Shown here in pieces: positions 4,641 through 62,526 of a stretch of DNA of 64,000 nucleotides. The notes beneath the pieces are model-generated. The model searched no databases. It had not been told where the DNA came from and saw only the letters and a program-made list of their open reading frames with translations. Position 1 is the stretch's first letter; each line of letters begins with the position of its first letter. The DNA is from Escherichia phage T4: sequence record MZ375356.1, one strand, 5' to 3'. Both the position numbers and the translations under genes were made by a program.

Positions 4641-4842
4641 TTTTCACCTTTTTATTGATATGTCTTTTTCTATAGACAACTTTTTCTCGAGTTTCAAATT
4701 TATTCTTAGCAGTCATAGCTCGAGCCCATAATACAGCCACTTCTTTTGCCTGTAAGTTTAATTCACGAGCAATTTCAATGAATGACTTTCCAGACTCATG
4801 AAGAGTAAACACCACAACCTCAGTTCTCATAATCAATCTCAT
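4627..4842 (-). CDS. 24.3: hypothetical protein 24.3
   Basis: 71-aa ORF, position. Confidence 0.6.
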   Translation of the reverse strand: MRLIMRTEVVVFTLHESGKSFIEIARELNLQAKEVAVLWARAMTAKNKFETREKVVYRKRHINKKVKNGTV

Positions 4843-4927: not shown

Positions 4928-5481
4928 ATGATAATGATACTTCATTAGAAGTAACGCTTAGTGCATCATAATCTGTCGCGGTTACTTGGGCTACGCATTT
5001 AATTCTTTTTACTCCACTTGTAGTTGGAGTATAGCTAAATGTAGAGTTAGTTTCTCCACCAACTTGTGAATCATCTACATACCACTGATACGTAGCAGAT
5101 GCTCCATCAGGTTGAGAAGCTAAGGCAGCAGTAAATTGAACTGGGGTTCCAATCACTCCAGCCGCAGGACTAGCAGGAGTTACGGCTAAGGTAGTCGTCT
5201 GTGTCTTATTTTTAACTGTGATAGTTGTTGTCGCTTCAGCCGTTTCCGGGCCTCCTTCAGAAAGTGTATTTGTTGCAACTACTTTAATAGTCTTTTGACC
5301 GGCAGGTCCTTTTAGCATAACTAAAAGTTGCTTCAGCTCCATCTTGTGGAACATTATCTACGCTCCAAGCATATGTAATAGTTCCGCCTCCAGTTTGACC
5401 ACTGGGTGTAGCAGTAAACTGCTTAGTTTCATCAATAACCCCTGTAGGTGTTTTAGGAGTTATATCAACTGTAAAAGTCAT
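4926..5481 (-). pseudogene. hoc: Hoc outer capsid protein, frameshifted after ~55 codons and lacking C-terminal half
   Basis: ORF 5284..5481 begins MTFTVDITPKTPTGVIDETKQFTATPSGQ then changes frame; ORF 4926..5354 continues with Ig-like domain sequence and stops 83 nt before 24.3; total ~190 codons versus 376 aa remembered for T4 Hoc. Confidence 0.8.
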
Positions 5482-6219: not shown

Positions 6220-6748
6220 ATGTACCACTTTGTATATGAAACAACAAATCTAATAAATGGTAAAAAGTATATAGGAAAGCACTCTACTGATGACTTGAAT
6301 GATGGTTACCTTGGTTCCGGTAAGGCAATTCAGCAGGCTATAAAGAAATATGGTGAAAACAATTTCTCTAGAACAATACTAAAAGAGTTTAAAACTTCCG
6401 AAGAAGCGTACATGTATGAAGAAGAAATTATAACTCCTGAACTAATAAAAAGCAAAAATTATAATATGAAACCTGGTGGAATTGGTGGAATTGGTGGAAT
6501 TGTTATGACTACAGATGTTATAGCAAAGATGAAAGAATCTTCCGCTAAAAGATTTGAAAACTCACCGGGCACGGTATTAGGTAAAACTTGTTACTAATGG
6601 AACTAAAAATATTTTTATTAAACCTGGAGAACTTGTTCCAGAAGGATTTGTAAAAGGGATGGTTCATCCTAATAGAAAGTCCAGAAAAGGATGTAAAGTC
6701 AAACCGACTACCACAGGAACTTTTTGGGTCAATAATGGCGCAAAATAA
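6220..6748 (+). pseudogene. segE: GIY-YIG homing endonuclease SegE-like, at least two frameshifts
   Basis: ORF 6220..6597 has GIY-YIG motif (MYHFVYETTNLINGKKYIG); Seg-type C-terminal motif (IFIKPGELVPEGFVKGM) continues in the next frame to 6748; a second copy of that motif is in the third frame running into uvsW. Confidence 0.7.
6475..6501 (+). repeat. 9-bp tandem repeat (GGTGGAATT)x3 inside segE
   Basis: three perfect tandem copies encoding GGIGGIGGI. Confidence 0.9.
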
Positions 6749-9505: not shown

Positions 9506-9549
9506 TTGTTATTGGTTGTTATTGGATGTTATTGGATGTTATTGGATGG
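9506..9549. repeat. tandem decamer repeat (TTGTTATTGG/ATGTTATTGG) x4 plus partial copy
   Basis: seen directly; lies in the uvsY upstream region between uvsY and gene 25. Confidence 0.9.
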
Positions 9550-17223: not shown

Positions 17224-17278
17224 TCCTCATGTTATGTTAGTAAGACTACTATAACACAACACGAGGGACTTGTAAACT
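17224..17278 (-). promoter_or_regulatory. T4 early-type promoter plus leader for alt.-3 (55-bp element repeated at 30437..30491)
   Basis: minus strand GTTTAC -35, 18-nt spacer, TATAGT -10, then RBS; near-identical copy upstream of alc. Confidence 0.55.
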
Positions 17279-17452
17279 ACATTTTGAACTTTTTAGTACG
17301 CGTAATAGGCATGCGTCGATTTTATACTGTTTCATTGTTTGAAGAGCAGTATCAAAAACAGCATTAATGACACCAATTGGATTTCCACCCAAGTTTTTAA
17401 GCTTAACTAATGATAGTTTCTCATTAACACCTATCATTACGATATGCATCAT
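17249..17452 (-). CDS. alt.-2: alt.-2, degenerate paralog of Alt residues ~64-126
   Basis: MMHIV...KQYKIDACLLRVLKS aligns to Alt MMHIV...RQYKIDACMLRILKS. Confidence 0.6.
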   Translation of the reverse strand: MMHIVMIGVNEKLSLVKLKNLGGNPIGVINAVFDTALQTMKQYKIDACLLRVLKSSKCSLQVPRVVL

Positions 17453-17634
17453 TTTATCGCCTGGTTTAACGTTTTATTTGTATCACCGCCAGAGGTGTAT
17501 GTACAAAATCTAAATCCAGGAAGTACACTTTCTTCACCGGCTTGAATAGCAAAAATTTGTGGTATTTTATGCTTAGGATTTAAGTTAACAACCGGCGCCG
17601 AAGCGCCGTCAAATAATTCTGTAATAAGTTCCAT
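17449..17634 (-). CDS. alt.-1: alt.-1, degenerate paralog of Alt N-terminal ~60 residues
   Basis: MELITELFDG...PGFRFCTYTSGGDTN aligns to Alt MMELITELFDE...PGFRLCTYTSGGDTN. Confidence 0.6.
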   Translation of the reverse strand: MELITELFDGASAPVVNLNPKHKIPQIFAIQAGEESVLPGFRFCTYTSGGDTNKTLNQAIK

Positions 17635-17637
17635 GAT

Positions 17638-19686
17638 TTATCCTTGAACGAACTTGTAAGGCATGTTTGCAATATCTATGCAAGACGCAATAATTCCAAG
17701 AGATGATTCTACTTTCTGTTTAACATTTGATGAAACAAATGATGCAAAGTCAACTCTATCTTCTATATCACCTGTCATTGTAACCAATTCACCAGTTTCC
17801 ATTAAATGGTCTCCGTCATAGATTACCGATTCGGTGAGTTCTTCTGTGGTCATAACTTCAGCTTGAATAAGCTTGTTGTTAGTTTTAACTGTTCCATCAT
17901 TGTAAGATGCATCGGTTATTTTATTAACTTTGACCATTAATCCACGTGGCAAAATGACTTCCATTTCATTTGAAGGCGCTAAACTTCCACCGGGTAAAAC
18001 AACATTGACCTTATCAGCCCCAGTAATAACCCATCCAATTCCAACTAAATTATCGCTAGAATTTACAAGTCCTTCATCAGTTTTATCAATAGAAACGCTT
18101 AAACGCTTTTCGTCTGGTAAAACACCTATAGATGAATCAGTCATCCAAGTACCAAAAATATTTGGATATAATGATGTTGACACAAAGTTTCTAAAATAAA
18201 AAACTCGATTTTTTACCATTGCTTCGTATATTGAAGGTAACATTCGTTGTGAACGATACAAAGTAATACCTTTTGGTAATCGTTCACCATTTTTAAAGGC
18301 TGAATCTAAATTATCAATAGCTTTTTCTATGTCAGATGCTGTCAAAATACTTGTACGCTCATCTGGATTATATAATCCCAAAAGAGCATTATTTATGTCT
18401 ACATATCCTGAACCTACGTATTCACGAATTCCGCGTTTTTGCGCTGGTGTGTATTTAGATGAATCTTTATTTTCGACTATAGGATGTAATGACCATCCAG
18501 CGGTAAGAGCATATCCACGTAATTCTCTTCGAATAATCTTTGTTTTTATTGCATTCCAAGAATTTTGTACTAACTCATTTGCAGCATCTTGGTTTAAATG
18601 CGAATGTTTGTTAATATTTCTTTCAAACCAAGCACCCTTATATTTTTCTAAAGTATCATCGACGATAGAAGCAATAGTTTCTAAGGTTTTTATTGAAGTA
18701 ATAGATTCTTTTCGTAATCTTTCTAAAGCTTTATTTTTTATTTCTGCGTTAATAATGGATTCTTTATCTTCAGGAATTATAGAAGCTTCTCTGAATGCCA
18801 TCCCAGCTGTAACACTGCTAAGAGCATTCTCTAGTGCAAATCCTGAAGTAGAAATTACCGTTAATTCATTAGAATCAGAAATTAAAGGCGCGTCCGCTGG
18901 TTTATTTAATTCGGCCGCTGAAGCCTCAAATTTTTGAAACATTGGTGTTTCAAATCTAGAAGATTCCAATGACTGACTTTGCGCAATTGCTCTACGGGAA
19001 ATTTTAACTTTAACGATTACAGCTTGGTCAGAACGTTTATCATTTTCTTGCGCAATAGATGCTGCAATTGCCTCATTTTTAGTTACTTGAGCCCCAGTAT
19101 CTTTATTGATATAAACATCACCGACCTTCGATTCAACTTTAGTAAAGAGCTCGGTACTAATTTCCGGAACTCCTGGAATGTCTTCTAGTGATACATTTTT
19201 GCGATGTATAAGAATATATGCATACTTTTTATCGTAATCCCAGAGTTCCTTAAGAAGGACGTATCTACCACCTGAACGACTACGGATAAGTCTATCAGCA
19301 ATAACTTGAATTTGTCGAGCTTGGCCAGCAGTTTTAGACTTAAGAATACGGAGCATACAGGCATCAATTTTATACTGGCGCATTGTTTGCATTGCAACAG
19401 TAAAAACTGAATTGATATAATTAATTGGGCTTGGACCAAGACCTTTTAATTTAGCAATTGAACCTTTAGCAGTTAATGTAAAAGGAACAATATGCATCAT
19501 TTTATCGCCCATCTTTAAATCACGATTAGTATCACCTCCAGATGTATAGGTACATAAACGAAAGCCTGGTTGTTCAATTGCATCATCAACATGAACTGAA
19601 AAAATTTGCGGTATTTTCTTCTTTGGATATAAGTTTGTAATTGGAAGAGTAGTATCTTCGTCAAATAATTCTGTAATAAGTTCCAT
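17638..19686 (-). CDS. alt: Alt ADP-ribosyltransferase (packaged, injected)
   Basis: 683-codon ORF (682 aa from second Met), position before gene 30. Confidence 0.9.
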   Translation of the reverse strand: MELITELFDEDTTLPITNLYPKKKIPQIFSVHVDDAIEQPGFRLCTYTSGGDTNRDLKMGDKMMHIVPFTLTAKGSIAKLKGLGPSPINYINSVFTVAMQTMRQYKIDACMLRILKSKTAGQARQIQVIADRLIRSRSGGRYVLLKELWDYDKKYAYILIHRKNVSLEDIPGVPEISTELFTKVESKVGDVYINKDTGAQVTKNEAIAASIAQENDKRSDQAVIVKVKISRRAIAQSQSLESSRFETPMFQKFEASAAELNKPADAPLISDSNELTVISTSGFALENALSSVTAGMAFREASIIPEDKESIINAEIKNKALERLRKESITSIKTLETIASIVDDTLEKYKGAWFERNINKHSHLNQDAANELVQNSWNAIKTKIIRRELRGYALTAGWSLHPIVENKDSSKYTPAQKRGIREYVGSGYVDINNALLGLYNPDERTSILTASDIEKAIDNLDSAFKNGERLPKGITLYRSQRMLPSIYEAMVKNRVFYFRNFVSTSLYPNIFGTWMTDSSIGVLPDEKRLSVSIDKTDEGLVNSSDNLVGIGWVITGADKVNVVLPGGSLAPSNEMEVILPRGLMVKVNKITDASYNDGTVKTNNKLIQAEVMTTEELTESVIYDGDHLMETGELVTMTGDIEDRVDFASFVSSNVKQKVESSLGIIASCIDIANMPYKFVQG

Positions 19687-19714
19687 CATATCCTCTCTAG
19701 TGTTTATTCTATTC

Positions 19715-30428: not shown

Positions 30429-30436
30429 CATAAAGT

Positions 30437-30491
30437 CCTCATGTTATGTCAGTAAGACTACTATAACACAACACGAGGGACTTGTAAACAA
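30437..30491 (-). promoter_or_regulatory. early-type promoter plus leader for alc (copy of the 17224..17278 element)
   Basis: 55 bp identical to the alt.-3 element except one base. Confidence 0.55.
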
Positions 30492-30492
30492 C

Positions 30493-40701: not shown

Positions 40702-40927
40702 TTATTGTTCAATCAGTCCCATGTAAAATTCTGCGTCTTCAGAATCCATGCCATCACAATATTCATTAGCCATAAAGCGGGTGAGGTCTTCAAGAGGACC
40801 TTCAATAACGATTTGAATACTCCAAAACTTAGAATCTTGCACGCTTGTGATACTAAGTTCAGGATAACGATTACGAATAATCTCTTCAATATTCAAAATC
40901 AACGATGTCAATATCAACTTTAGCCAT
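40702..40927 (-). pseudogene. frd.3: frd.3 with frameshift near codon 13
   Basis: ATG with RBS AAAGAGGAAA at 40927 gives [13 protein letters not shown] then stop; downstream frame (listed ORF 40702..40917, non-ATG start) carries the rest. Confidence 0.5.
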
Positions 40928-40944
40928 ATTATTTTCCTCTTTAA

Positions 40945-41037
40945 TTAGCAGTATTGCCGATAGTTGTATAGTACCATAAAGCTTTATGCTTGTAAACCGT
41001 TTTGTCCATAAAGCTTTATGCTTGTAAACCGTTTTGT
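40945..41037 (-). promoter_or_regulatory. early-type promoter region with perfect 32-bp tandem duplication (40974..41005 and 41006..41037)
   Basis: each copy carries GTTTAC -35 and a GCTTTA MotA-box-like motif; only the proximal copy is followed by GGTACTATACAACTATC; element family also at 57760 and 60818. Confidence 0.5.
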
Positions 41038-41044
41038 GAAAAAA

Positions 41045-41079
41045 TTTTTAAAATAAAAAAGGGGACCTCTAGGGTCCCC
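41045..41079 (-). terminator. gene 32 transcription terminator
   Basis: GGGGACC-CTAGA-GGTCCCC on minus strand followed by T-run. Confidence 0.8.
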
Positions 41080-57103: not shown

Positions 57104-57739
57104 TCACAGTTCAGATGCTACAGTGATTACAGCTTCAATGTTTTCTGCCGAGCGTTTAATGTCAAGATACACATTACCGTTTTTAGCGATTTTACATGAC
57201 ATTCCGATGTCAGTAAATTTCTGAATATGATGTTCCATCATTTTGTATCCAAAAATTCGCATATTTCCATTGTTATTAATTTCAAAATTACGAATTCCGT
57301 TAGTGCGTTTTTCTAAAATAGCAAGATAATTACTACGATAAATTTCAACCTTTTTAAGAACAAATCCATTTTTATCTAAAAGTTTTAACATGAGGTCTTT
57401 ATCTTCTTCCATATCGGAAGTAATCTCGCGAGCTTTACGAGTTGCTCGTTTTTTCAGCAGTTCCGGAGCATTTTCCTGTGCATATAAAGTTGCTGCATTT
57501 GAAATAATATCCTGAGCTTCACCAGTAATGATTAATCCATCACCAGATTTCTCCACCAGGCCTTTTTTAATCAATACCCCAATATTACTATTAACTACTG
57601 CGTTACCTAAATCTGGATGCACCTCACGAACTTCTGCAGCTGTAATGAAATCTTTCTTAGCAATGGTAATTAAAATCGTAGCAGTTTTTTCATTCAGAAC
57701 ATCGTTAGAAGCTTTGATGATGTAAGTTACTTTAGACAT
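57104..57739 (-). CDS. motA: MotA middle-transcription activator
   Basis: 211-aa ORF MSKVTYIIKASNDVLNEKTATILI... Confidence 0.9.
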   Translation of the reverse strand: MSKVTYIIKASNDVLNEKTATILITIAKKDFITAAEVREVHPDLGNAVVNSNIGVLIKKGLVEKSGDGLIITGEAQDIISNAATLYAQENAPELLKKRATRKAREITSDMEEDKDLMLKLLDKNGFVLKKVEIYRSNYLAILEKRTNGIRNFEINNNGNMRIFGYKMMEHHIQKFTDIGMSCKIAKNGNVYLDIKRSAENIEAVITVASEL

Positions 57740-57759
57740 TTTCTAATCTCCGTAATTCT

Positions 57760-57820
57760 GTATCAGTAGTTGATAGTTGTATAGTACCACAGTATGCTTT
57801 GGTTGTAAACCGTTTTGTGA
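57760..57820 (-). promoter_or_regulatory. early-type promoter element upstream of motA (family shared with 40945 and 60818)
   Basis: minus strand CACAAAACGGTTTACA...GTGGTACTATACAACTATCAACT. Confidence 0.5.
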
Positions 57821-57827
57821 AAAAATT

Positions 57828-57861
57828 TTTAAAATAAAAAAGGGAGAGCCTCGGCTCTCCC
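57828..57861 (-). terminator. hairpin terminator upstream of motA promoter
   Basis: GGGAGAGCC-GA-GGCTCTCCC on minus strand followed by T-run. Confidence 0.7.
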
Positions 57862-57866
57862 TAAAA

Positions 57867-60566: not shown

Positions 60567-60694
60567 TTTACACCATTCCAAATTGTTTCAACCACGGATT
60601 TTAAACCATTTTGATGAATATCCATTCCTACTACCGCTGAAACCTGTGCAACCCACCACGCACAAGCAATAAGTACAGAATTCAAAATTTTCAT
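60563..60694 (-). CDS. small hydrophobic peptide (43 aa; ndd.x cluster)
   Basis: ORF MKILNSVLIACAWWVAQVSAVVGMD... Confidence 0.3.
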   Translation of the reverse strand: MKILNSVLIACAWWVAQVSAVVGMDIHQNGLKSVVETIWNGVK

Positions 60695-60777: not shown

Positions 60778-60817
60778 AGTTCAATCTCAGCGATTTTCAT
60801 TTTATTCTCCAAATCCG

Positions 60818-60880
60818 TATCAGTTGATAGTTGTATAGTACCACGGTCCTTGTGGTATGTAAACTGTTTTGTGAAATTTT
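60818..60880 (-). promoter_or_regulatory. early-type promoter element (family shared with 40945 and 57760)
   Basis: minus strand CACAAAACAGTTTACATACC...GTGGTACTATACAACTATCAACTGA. Confidence 0.5.
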
Positions 60881-61438
60881 TTAAATGGAAAGATACCATC
60901 CGTTGTAGTTGCTTTTTCTTACAACTTTACGAAGGTCTTCTCTGTCACCGATGAACTTCGGAGTGTACTGGATGACACCTGGATGAATTTCTTTAGTGTT
61001 GAATATAATTATACAGTCAGCGACTTGATGATTTAGAATGGGCCCTAGATTTATTCCAGAACCATATGGATACTCTCCGCTGCATCCCGTTGTTACCGAA
61101 ATCCAACGTGAGTCAGTTTGATGTGTCTTAACTTCTACACGAAGCCCGCAGTATTTTGGATGAGCCAATACATCCCATGCATATGTGTACGGATCATCGA
61201 CATCCTCTTGGCCTTTATTGACATATCCACTCAACCAATCTGCCACAAAAAACTCTGCGTACACAGCGATACGGCATCTTTCGATAACTTCTGCCTTATC
61301 TTGATTTGGGTTTTGTTTTAAAGAGTATCTTGCAGTATCAGCAATTTTGACCTTCATTTCACAGGTCAAGTCACTGTTCGATAGGGTAAATGTCGGAATC
61401 TGAAATAGTCTCTGTAACCCAGGATTCGTTTTCTGCAT
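60881..61438 (-). CDS. denB: endonuclease IV
   Basis: 185-aa ORF, size and position. Confidence 0.8.
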   Translation of the reverse strand: MQKTNPGLQRLFQIPTFTLSNSDLTCEMKVKIADTARYSLKQNPNQDKAEVIERCRIAVYAEFFVADWLSGYVNKGQEDVDDPYTYAWDVLAHPKYCGLRVEVKTHQTDSRWISVTTGCSGEYPYGSGINLGPILNHQVADCIIIFNTKEIHPGVIQYTPKFIGDREDLRKVVRKSNYNGWYLSI

Positions 61439-61744: not shown

Positions 61745-62526
61745 TTATTTAAATTGTTCAGTAACGTCTTCAACTACTTCATATTGGCAGGTACGCATTT
61801 TAGCATCGTTGTAATCAATCGGAATTGATACTACATCGCGAGGATGAACTTTAACTTTTACAACTCGGCTGGTTGAACTACCAAAGTGACGAATATAAGA
61901 TTTAGAACACACATGCAAACCACGAGAACAAGTTTGTGTATCATCGTCATTCACACGAGTACGTGGCATTTTAACTACTACCCGGACTGTTATCAAAGGT
62001 GTTTGAGTGACAGTCAAAGTAATTGCTGCGAACTACTTTCCAAGCATAGAAAACCATCTTCTGTAATTTCAATATCGTTTGCTACCAAGAAATCAAAGAG
62101 TCGAGATACCGCTTTTTGGCTTGGGTTTTCCAACAGATTTTCCAAGAACGGAAAATAAAATTCAAAGTTTTCGCCTTTTTCCATCGAGTCAAGAATACGA
62201 TCAACCAAACCAGACCGCAATTCAATATTTTGATAGAACAAGCTTCCACCTTCAATTCGAACATCGCCGGAAATATATTTTTCAACAGCACGACGAACAT
62301 TAATTTTTTGTGCCGCTTCTTCCAACTTATCCGCTACAAGCAGATTAAGAATTTCCTGGAAGTTTGAATGAGTATTAGGAGTTGCGTTATAAGTTACGCC
62401 ATCAACAGTAATTGAAATGAATTTTTTAGATGCATTCCAAATAATGTCAGATTTAGCAACTGGAGCAATAACTGCATCGCTATTAACTTTAACTGTAATA
62501 TCACCGCTAATAGTAACTTTAGGACG
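61745..62526 (-). pseudogene. rIIB: rIIB remnant: N-terminal ~51 codons absent, internal frameshift near 62017
   Basis: [30 protein letters not shown]... through ...[10 protein letters not shown] (in ORF 62014..62850) then frame change to ...CSRGLHVCSKSYIRHFGSS...EQFK (ORF 61745..62017); remembered N-terminus MYNIKCLTKNEQAEIV not present. Confidence 0.6.

Follow-up and report, generated by a model that had tools for sequence, protein, structure and literature searches.

Short tandem duplications and deletions form a known class of mutations in phage T4, documented in the older rII and gene 17-18 literature. Early genes of T4 are transcribed by the unmodified host sigma-70 RNA polymerase from early promoters (Pe), which lie 5' of these genes and combine GTTTAC at -36 to -31, a 17-bp spacer, the extended -10 sequence TGnTAnnnT and an A/T-rich UP element; motA and alc are classical genes of this class. 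The published early consensus comprises GTTTAC at -36 to -31 and an A-rich UP region (PMC1524935). Such promoters have been termed 'uber' UP/-35/TGn/-10 promoters, and MotA and Alc are listed among the early products (PMC2988021). The RNA of motA is seen at 1 min (PMC9697503).

Two further systems of T4 and its relatives are relevant here. The PeSL (promoter-early stem-loop) was defined with a T4/PST consensus TTTACW-N17-TAYWAT, and the ndd.4/.5 region was given as an example of PeSL-mediated exchange between T4 and PST (Comeau et al. 2014, PMC4122927). Recombination between PeSLs has been shown to produce mini-circles in RB49 and phi1 (Arbiol et al. 2010, PMC2839356). A different use of a promoter placed inside a structured RNA is established at the T4 genes e, soc, 49 and I-TevI, where the ribosome-binding site (RBS) is hidden by a hairpin in long transcripts and an internal late promoter drops the 5' arm, so that expression is delayed (PMC3014915).

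Five repeated elements in a 64-kb stretch of T4 DNA (hereafter "the window") belong with these systems. They are very probably T4 early-promoter cassettes, of which one group of three (family B) consists of PeSL-type mosaics, and the exact 32-bp duplication in one of the three is most likely a recent mutation private to this clone. Compared with the known early promoters the elements exhibit no difference in kind; the copy upstream of frd.3 alone has the 32-bp internal duplication, which is absent from wild type. For T4 biology they mostly confirm that early-promoter cassettes are reusable and able to act as recombination points.

The five elements and the clone that carries them

The region around the repeats is 99.2-99.6% identical to phage T4. 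Relative to the reference genome NC_000866.4, the window begins inside gene 23 and ends with rIIB and rIIA; in between it holds alt, gene 30, alc, nrdA/B, td, frd, gene 32, the tail-fibre genes, motA and ndd. It is separated from this reference by 124 small sites and from a modern wild-type T4 assembly (OZ035787.1) by 75. The closest public record is OL964745.1 ('Mutant Escherichia phage T4 clone T4_7t1'), with only 31 differing sites in 47.6 kb; most of the differences from the reference are common to both sequences. The annotation notes of OL964745.1 carry T4583L locus tags, and T4_583L is a mutant from a CRISPR/Cas9 iterative genome-reduction study (Yuan et al. 2022, PMC9825161). Because of the near-identity to T4_7t1 and of these locus tags, the window derives not from wild type but from a sibling clone within the CRISPR-passaged genome-reduction (CiPGr) T4 lineage. 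It represents a heavily mutated laboratory clone, and features such as the 32-bp duplication should not be taken as properties of T4.

All five elements, and the genes that they precede, are on the minus strand. The downstream genes are alt.-3 and alc for the first group (family A), and frd.3, motA and ndd.6 for family B; these gene labels agree with the annotation of NC_000866.4. The initial annotation of the window had proposed that the elements are early-promoter cassettes, and each of the five indeed carries the full T4 early-promoter signature in the right orientation and position. The -35 sequence GTTTACA is present at all of them, as are a spacer of exactly 17 bp and a TG before the -10 hexamer. 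Family A has TATAGT as its hexamer and family B has TACTAT, giving a common form TTTACA, 17 bp, TGn plus TA(C/T)(T/A)(A/G)T. A Shine-Dalgarno sequence (SD) and an ATG follow about 35-45 nt beyond the -10 at alt.-3, alc, frd.3 and motA, and at ndd.6 a short ORF leads into the gene. Over the 30 nt that precede the -35, the A+T fraction amounts to 0.83 for motA and wild-type frd.3, 0.77 for ndd.6 and 0.70 for family A; an A/T-rich UP element is thus found at the sites of both families.

The elements are already known biology, namely strong early promoters of T4. In the proposed mechanism, host sigma-70 RNA polymerase would recognise the UP block, GTTTACA, the 17-bp spacer and the extended -10 (TGn plus TACTAT or TATAGT), and would start transcription about 7 nt past the -10, at predicted sites near 17241, 30453, 40961, 57774 and 60828. 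Each promoter is packaged with a 5' leader and a ribosome-binding site as one cassette in front of a small early gene. A search of the literature returned no transcription start data for alt.-3, frd.3 or ndd.6, and we infer promoter activity at the individual sites from their sequence.

Family A and its predicted hairpin

The features of the two family A copies are as follows.

17224-17280, minus strand: family A copy 1, comprising the early promoter and the leader of alt.-3
17277-17248, minus strand: promoter of copy 1, with the G of GTTTAC at 17277, -35 TTTACA at 17276-17271, TG at 17256-17255 and -10 TATAGT at 17253-17248
17241-17214, minus strand: leader of copy 1, with predicted +1 at about 17241, SD GAGG at 17228-17225 and ATG at 17216-17214
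17225-17266, minus strand: hairpin of copy 1, from fold prediction
17266-17254 and 17237-17225, minus strand: predicted hairpin arms, the 5' arm in the promoter spacer and the 3' arm in the leader with the SD
30436-30492, minus strand: family A copy 2, comprising the early promoter and the leader of alc
30488-30460, minus strand: promoter of copy 2, with -35 at 30488-30483 and -10 TATAGT at 30465-30460
30453-30426, minus strand: leader of copy 2, with predicted +1 at about 30453, SD at 30440-30437 and annotated alc ATG at 30428-30426

A 55-bp element upstream of alt.-3, recurring upstream of alc with one differing base, had been noticed initially. The repeat and its single mismatch hold, but the second copy is in the register 30436..30490 and not 30437..30491. 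Extended by two positions, it is a 57-nt direct repeat (17224-17280 and 30436-30492) with 2 mismatches. Its 39-nt core has two exact matches in the window, with 0 expected from 100 shuffles. One and the same cassette precedes two unrelated genes.

The cassette precedes alt.-3 and alc in essentially all Tequatrovirus genomes (499 records each). Most of these genomes have the end of the alt gene 16 nt upstream of the family A -35. In T4, alt and the cassette are kept apart by the alt.-1/alt.-2 partial duplication, which occurs in only about 90 of the 499 records. According to the T4 annotation, alt.-1/alt.-2 is a partial duplicate of the alt 5' end (window 17607-17637 and 19659-19689). Homology with relatives stops at window position 17296.

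In nine genomes compared, the two family A copies mostly agree in full or have 1-3 differing positions. Three of the nine exhibit a TTA allele of the spacer that is specific to the alt.-3 locus, which points to independent descent of the two copies. In PP01 and G28, both copies carry the same two substitutions, TATAATAATC replacing TATAGTAGTC. This single case is suggestive, and nothing beyond that, of gene conversion between the alt.-3 and alc sites 13-15 kb apart, or of parallel selection for a consensus -10.

Besides the promoter, family A exhibits a second feature. The spacer CCCTCGTGTTGTGTTAT is predicted to form the 5' arm of a hairpin, of which the 3' arm is the leader ATAACATGAGG including the SD; the structure spans -36 to the start codon, with the -10 box and the start site at its tip. 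The same hairpin is predicted for the alc copy. The fold of the read-through RNA has an energy of -23.3 kcal/mol at alt.-3 (z -4.3) and -26.9 kcal/mol at alc (z -3.6), and in both cases 0 of 200 dinucleotide shuffles folded as well. RNA begun at the predicted +1 is essentially unstructured (-2.2 kcal/mol). By prediction, then, a long transcript has the SD paired, and RNA from the gene's own promoter leaves it free.

From these folds it can be argued that family A owes its conservation chiefly to a role in RNA, the promoter spacer serving as an anti-SD that hides the RBS in read-through transcripts. Translation of alt.-3 and alc would then require RNA from their own early promoter, an idea that adds to the promoter reading and does not replace it. 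We consider this a serious candidate that stops somewhat short of an even chance. In its favour, no terminator hairpin was found on their strand between alt.-3 or alc and the gene upstream. The logic is the one established for late promoters at e, soc, 49 and I-TevI (PMC3014915), where, as in family A, the SD is hidden in the long RNA and an internal promoter drops the 5' arm. Those late promoters delay expression, whereas the promoter of family A is early and its predicted structure would restrict translation to the immediate-early period. One-sided changes in relatives retain the pairing (C-G to U-G and G-U to A-U). However, among 10 distinct family A sequences, in which 97.8% of cells are paired, there are 0 compensatory double-sided changes, and shuffled controls do as well, the variation being too low. 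The alc promoter of Mosigvirus lacks the 5' arm of the hairpin, and folding of family B reveals no structure that pairs the SD.

Complementarity of this kind is not confined to family A. Among the 38 early-type promoters of wild-type T4 that have a downstream SD-ATG, 9 have a spacer complementary to the leader at p <= 0.01 when compared with shuffled spacers, the expected number being 0.4. In 8 of these 9 the duplexes have energies of -17 to -21.5 kcal/mol and extend across the whole SD (p = 0.002 against shuffled spacers), which speaks for an RNA element. Their positions are listed here.

26967, 34184, 40209, 70679, 80981, 126708, 135562 and 138170 of OZ035787.1: the eight promoters with a putative anti-SD spacer
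17277, 24473 and 30489 of the window: putative anti-SD spacer promoters in the clone

It is conceivable, though in our judgement rather doubtful, that some one fifth of the early promoters of T4 have an anti-SD in the -35/-10 spacer as a promoter-coupled translational gate. The gene could then be silent on read-through transcripts, and its protein would be made only in the immediate-early burst. In that event family A would represent the device in duplicate, and PeSL-type shuffling would move promoter and gate jointly. If real, the design would explain how T4 limits some proteins to the first minutes of infection, and also why the whole cassette is conserved beyond its hexamers. The anti-SD spacer hairpin is the only lead here with some novelty, and we keep it as a secondary, unproven hypothesis beside the early-promoter reading.

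As a separate observation, inverted repeats bracket the -10 in the promoters of 30.8, cd.3 and frd.2.

Family B, its mosaic copies and the 32-bp duplication

Family B is located at three sites in the window, with the following features.

41061-41079, minus strand: gene 32 intrinsic terminator, GGGGACC-CTAGA-GGTCCCC and then a T run, directly upstream of family B copy 1
41038-41060, minus strand: T-run and UP-element block TTTTTTATTTTAAAAATTTTTTC, A/T-rich, an exact match to the motA copy
41006-41037, minus strand: distal 32-bp unit, with a -35-like TTTACA at 41028-41023 and no usable -10 at the right distance
40974-41005, minus strand: proximal 32-bp unit, with the functional -35 TTTACA at 40996-40991, the 17-bp spacer and the TGG of the extended -10
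40925-40973, minus strand: frd.3 start region, with -10 TACTAT at 40973-40968, the conserved ACAACTATC, leader, SD and ATG at 40927-40925
57737-57862, minus strand: family B copy 2 (motA), with terminator at 57862-57841, UP block and -35 at 57809-57804
57786-57737, minus strand: remainder of the motA copy, with -10 TACTAT at 57786-57781 (core 18-mer at 57789-57772), GGAG SD and ATG at 57739-57737
60798-60885, minus strand: family B copy 3 (ndd.6), with an A/T-rich block, -35 at 60863-60858 and -10 TACTAT at 60840-60835
60843-60798, minus strand: remainder of the ndd.6 copy, with the core 18-mer at 60843-60826, leader, SD and ATG at 60800-60798; an upstream terminator is absent

The three-site repeat is exact: GGTACTATACAACTATC occurs at 40959, 57772 and 60826, always on the minus strand, against a mean of 0.15 in shuffled sequences, none of which reached 3. 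The description of family B as usually following a terminator hairpin also stands, two of the three copies (frd.3 and motA) having one and the ndd.6 copy none. The frd.3 and motA copies have a further 34 nt in common upstream of the -35, CCCTTTTTTATTTTAAAAATTTTTTCACAAAACG. At ndd.6, the ATG at 60800-60798 opens an 8-codon mini-ORF (MKIAEIEL), the stop codon of which overlaps the ATG of ndd.6 itself (ATGA; annotated start 60777-60775). In frd.3 (40702-40927, minus strand), a 2-bp (AT) deletion at 40889 leaves 13 codons followed by a stop, as it does in T4_7t1; the duplicated promoter thus serves a gene that has already lost its function.

Two minor observations concern the same sites. The first four codons of the mini-ORF are also the start of imm.1, so that the repeated cassette reaches into coding sequence. 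The spacers of the three copies differ in sequence and yet each has dyad symmetry (CATAAAGCTTTATG at 40977-40990, ACCAAAGCATACTGTGGT at 57790-57803 and TACCACAAGGACCGTGGTA at 60844-60857, minus strand).

The 32-bp duplication in the frd.3 copy (40974-41005 and 41006-41037) is exact as first described, Tandem Repeats Finder (TRF) reporting a period of 32, 2.0 copies and a 100% match. The initial annotation had left it to a comparison with the reference whether the duplication is a feature of T4. It is not: NC_000866.4 has a single unit, as do AF158101.6, T4T, T4 GT7, T4_7t1 and the wild-type assembly OZ035787.1. The duplication is equally absent from the best 30 of 501 matching phage records, which have a 70-nt span where the window has 102; these 30 include 14 T4 records and the mutant clone OL964735.1, and any carrier of the duplication would rank first. 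The duplication junction GTAAACCGTTTTGTCCATAAAGC obtained 0 hits in IMG/VR and 0 in metagenome contigs.

The duplicated unit corresponds to about -44 to -13 of the promoter and comprises the end of the upstream block, the -35, the spacer and, from the extended -10, its TGG. Together with the unduplicated -10, the proximal unit makes a complete promoter, and a scan of that strand detects no other; for the distal -35, the sequence at the -10 position is ACAAAA. The UP block and the gene 32 terminator are shifted 32 bp, or about three helical turns, upstream of the working -35, and the A+T fraction in the 30 nt upstream of the frd.3 -35 falls from 0.83 in wild type to 0.63 in this clone. The duplication is a natural experiment in which the UP element has been moved by three helical turns with the core promoter intact. 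Its effect is probably neutral or mildly weakening, since frd.3 is already frameshifted in the lineage.

Like the T4 events of this type, it is a short, perfect head-to-tail duplication in a laboratory stock, and deletions between short direct repeats occur in the same lineage. It differs in having no flanking microhomology, and simple slippage therefore fails to explain it. The spacer of the proximal unit holds a perfect 14-bp palindrome, CATAAAGCTTTATG, which may, speculatively, have favoured template switching. We regard the duplication as a very recent spontaneous mutation that would have arisen in this clone under relaxed selection.

It could instead be an artefact of assembly or sequencing in the source record, a reading in keeping with its being unique among all public sequences searched and with the bare flanks. 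We judge this improbable. Short reads easily span a 64-bp exact tandem, and two other tandem repeats of the lineage, TGTTATTGGA and TGGTGGAAT, exhibit real copy-number changes between sibling clones. Moreover, the small indels of the lineage avoid frameshifting essential genes, as real selected mutations would. A recent private mutation is the reading that we retain for the duplication.

Family B had been taken for a set of three copies, which is correct within the window but not genome-wide. In the complete wild-type T4 genome the 18-mer TGGTACTATACAACTATC has 7 exact occurrences, on one strand only, upstream of frd.3, motA, ndd.6, imm.1, nrdC.8, nrdC.10 and e.8. Comparison of these copies reveals a block structure. 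Between the T-run/UP block and the end of the 17-bp spacer, the nrdC.10 copy has just 2 mismatches to the frd.3 copy in about 85 nt; it has a different terminator stem before this block and an ndd.6-type leader after it. The imm.1 copy is the same as the ndd.6 copy over the -10, the leader and the initial four codons (ATGAAAATCGCT), but its spacer is that of the ndd.4 promoter. The family B copies are mosaics, with blocks exchanged at the conserved -35 and -10/start segments, and we infer for them a recombinational origin. Homologous recombination within these conserved segments would swap the modules lying between them. The initial suggestion that such dispersed repeats are substrates for recombination corresponds to the published PeSL model, with which the mosaic copies of wild-type T4 are in accord.

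In its complete form, family B (terminator hairpin, UP element, promoter and leader) would be the T4 version of the PeSL, and it is already known in kind. At frd.3 and motA it has the PeSL layout, in which a terminator stem-loop and an A/T-rich tract precede the early promoter, the SD and the start codon. The family as a whole shares with the PeSL the many near-identical copies and the location before small ORFs in hyperplastic regions; the seven cores provide the multiple similar copies with SD and start codon. The mosaic pattern is likewise consistent with recombination between copies, and the ndd region is itself the published T4/PST example. On the other hand, within the window the stem-loop is present only at frd.3 (41079-41061) and motA (57862-57841) and is absent at ndd.6, alt.-3 and alc; the family A and ndd.6 copies are promoter-leader cassettes, that is, incomplete PeSLs lacking the stem-loop. 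The PeSL mini-circles were demonstrated for RB49 and phi1 rather than for T4.

The identity between copies might also have arisen by convergent selection for an optimal promoter and leader, with neither common descent nor recombination. T4 early promoters are conserved past their hexamers (PMC2988021), and the family B spacers are wholly different between copies of which the functional blocks are identical, as convergence would have it. Yet the identity reaches parts that have no known contact with the polymerase, such as the leader and four codons ATGAAAATCGCT common to imm.1 and ndd.6, or the identical 17-bp spacer and nearly unchanged UP block of the frd.3 and nrdC.10 copies. These blocks are missing from other T4 early promoters in the window, and in PP01 and G28 the same two substitutions are found in both family A copies. 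Convergence is even less probable than the artefact discussed above, and we continue to read family B as a set of recombinational mosaics.

Deletions and other changes in the lineage

About 55-56 of the differences between the window and wild-type T4 are deletions of 1-3 bp, mostly the loss of one unit of a short tandem repeat (for example at 1658, 22049, 27721, 39540, 40889 and 61979). Frameshifting deletions are found in homing-endonuclease genes (seg/mob), hoc, frd, frd.2, frd.3, arn.1, ac, ndd.1, rIIA/B and the 30.x and cd.x ORFs, all of them dispensable. There is no frameshift in the structural, replication and nucleotide-metabolism genes that were checked by coordinates against the annotation, and the 3-bp deletions in genes 29 and 34 preserve the frame. 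Only 22 of 55 small deletions lie at positions of an SpCas9 PAM plus seed, where 31 +/- 3.8 are expected at random. The small deletions were considered as Cas9 escape mutations and this candidate was rejected, there being no enrichment at these positions. For the same reason we treat them as spontaneous, and as kept since the genes are dispensable. That the 32-bp duplication itself is a by-product or escape product of Cas9 cleavage is the least probable of the alternatives: passaging of the lineage made use of Cas9 with guide libraries (PMC9825161) and the unit has a TGG PAM at its proximal end, but guides were not designed against likely regulatory elements (PMC9825161), protospacer and PAM are intact and now present in two copies, and the small deletions fall at PAM plus seed no more often than at random.

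The clone has also undergone three larger deletions. In hoc, about 570 bp comprising the 3' part are gone, with a short microhomology at the junction (window about 4932-4939). A 341-bp deletion from ndd.2a to ndd.5 occurred between 10-bp direct repeats, CTACTACCGC, in coding sequence (window about 60628-60637), and the early promoter of ndd.4, a relative of family B, was lost with it. About 857 bp are missing from rIIA/rIIB, comprising the rIIB 5' end and the rIIA 3' end (window about 62511-62523). Of the three, junctions were read for the hoc and ndd.2a-ndd.5 deletions. The idea that the larger deletions end in promoter repeats is unsupported, the hoc and ndd junctions being microhomologies of 5-10 bp; recombination at the cassettes is not seen at either of these two junctions. 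The rIIA/rIIB deletion looks like a classical rII fusion deletion.

Two tandem repeats other than the 32-bp duplication vary in copy number between the sibling clones. The first, TGTTATTGGA, is located at 9507-9548 between uvsY and gene 25 (oriF region) and has 4.2 copies in the window, 5.2 in T4_7t1 and 2 in wild-type T4; within the lineage the number of copies is in flux. The second, TGGTGGAAT, has 3.2 copies in segE (6463-6502), a number unlike those of both T4_7t1 and wild type.

A search with Rfam at gathering thresholds returned zero families in the window and did not report even the group I introns of td and nrdB; the introns were presumably missed since their internal ORFs split the models. 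Finally, gene 24.3 contains a 33-bp segment flanked by CTCGAG, the XhoI site (window 4691-4723). The segment is present in the window, T4_7t1 and OZ035787.1 and missing from NC_000866.4, and looks like a small XhoI fragment that was lost from the reference sequence.
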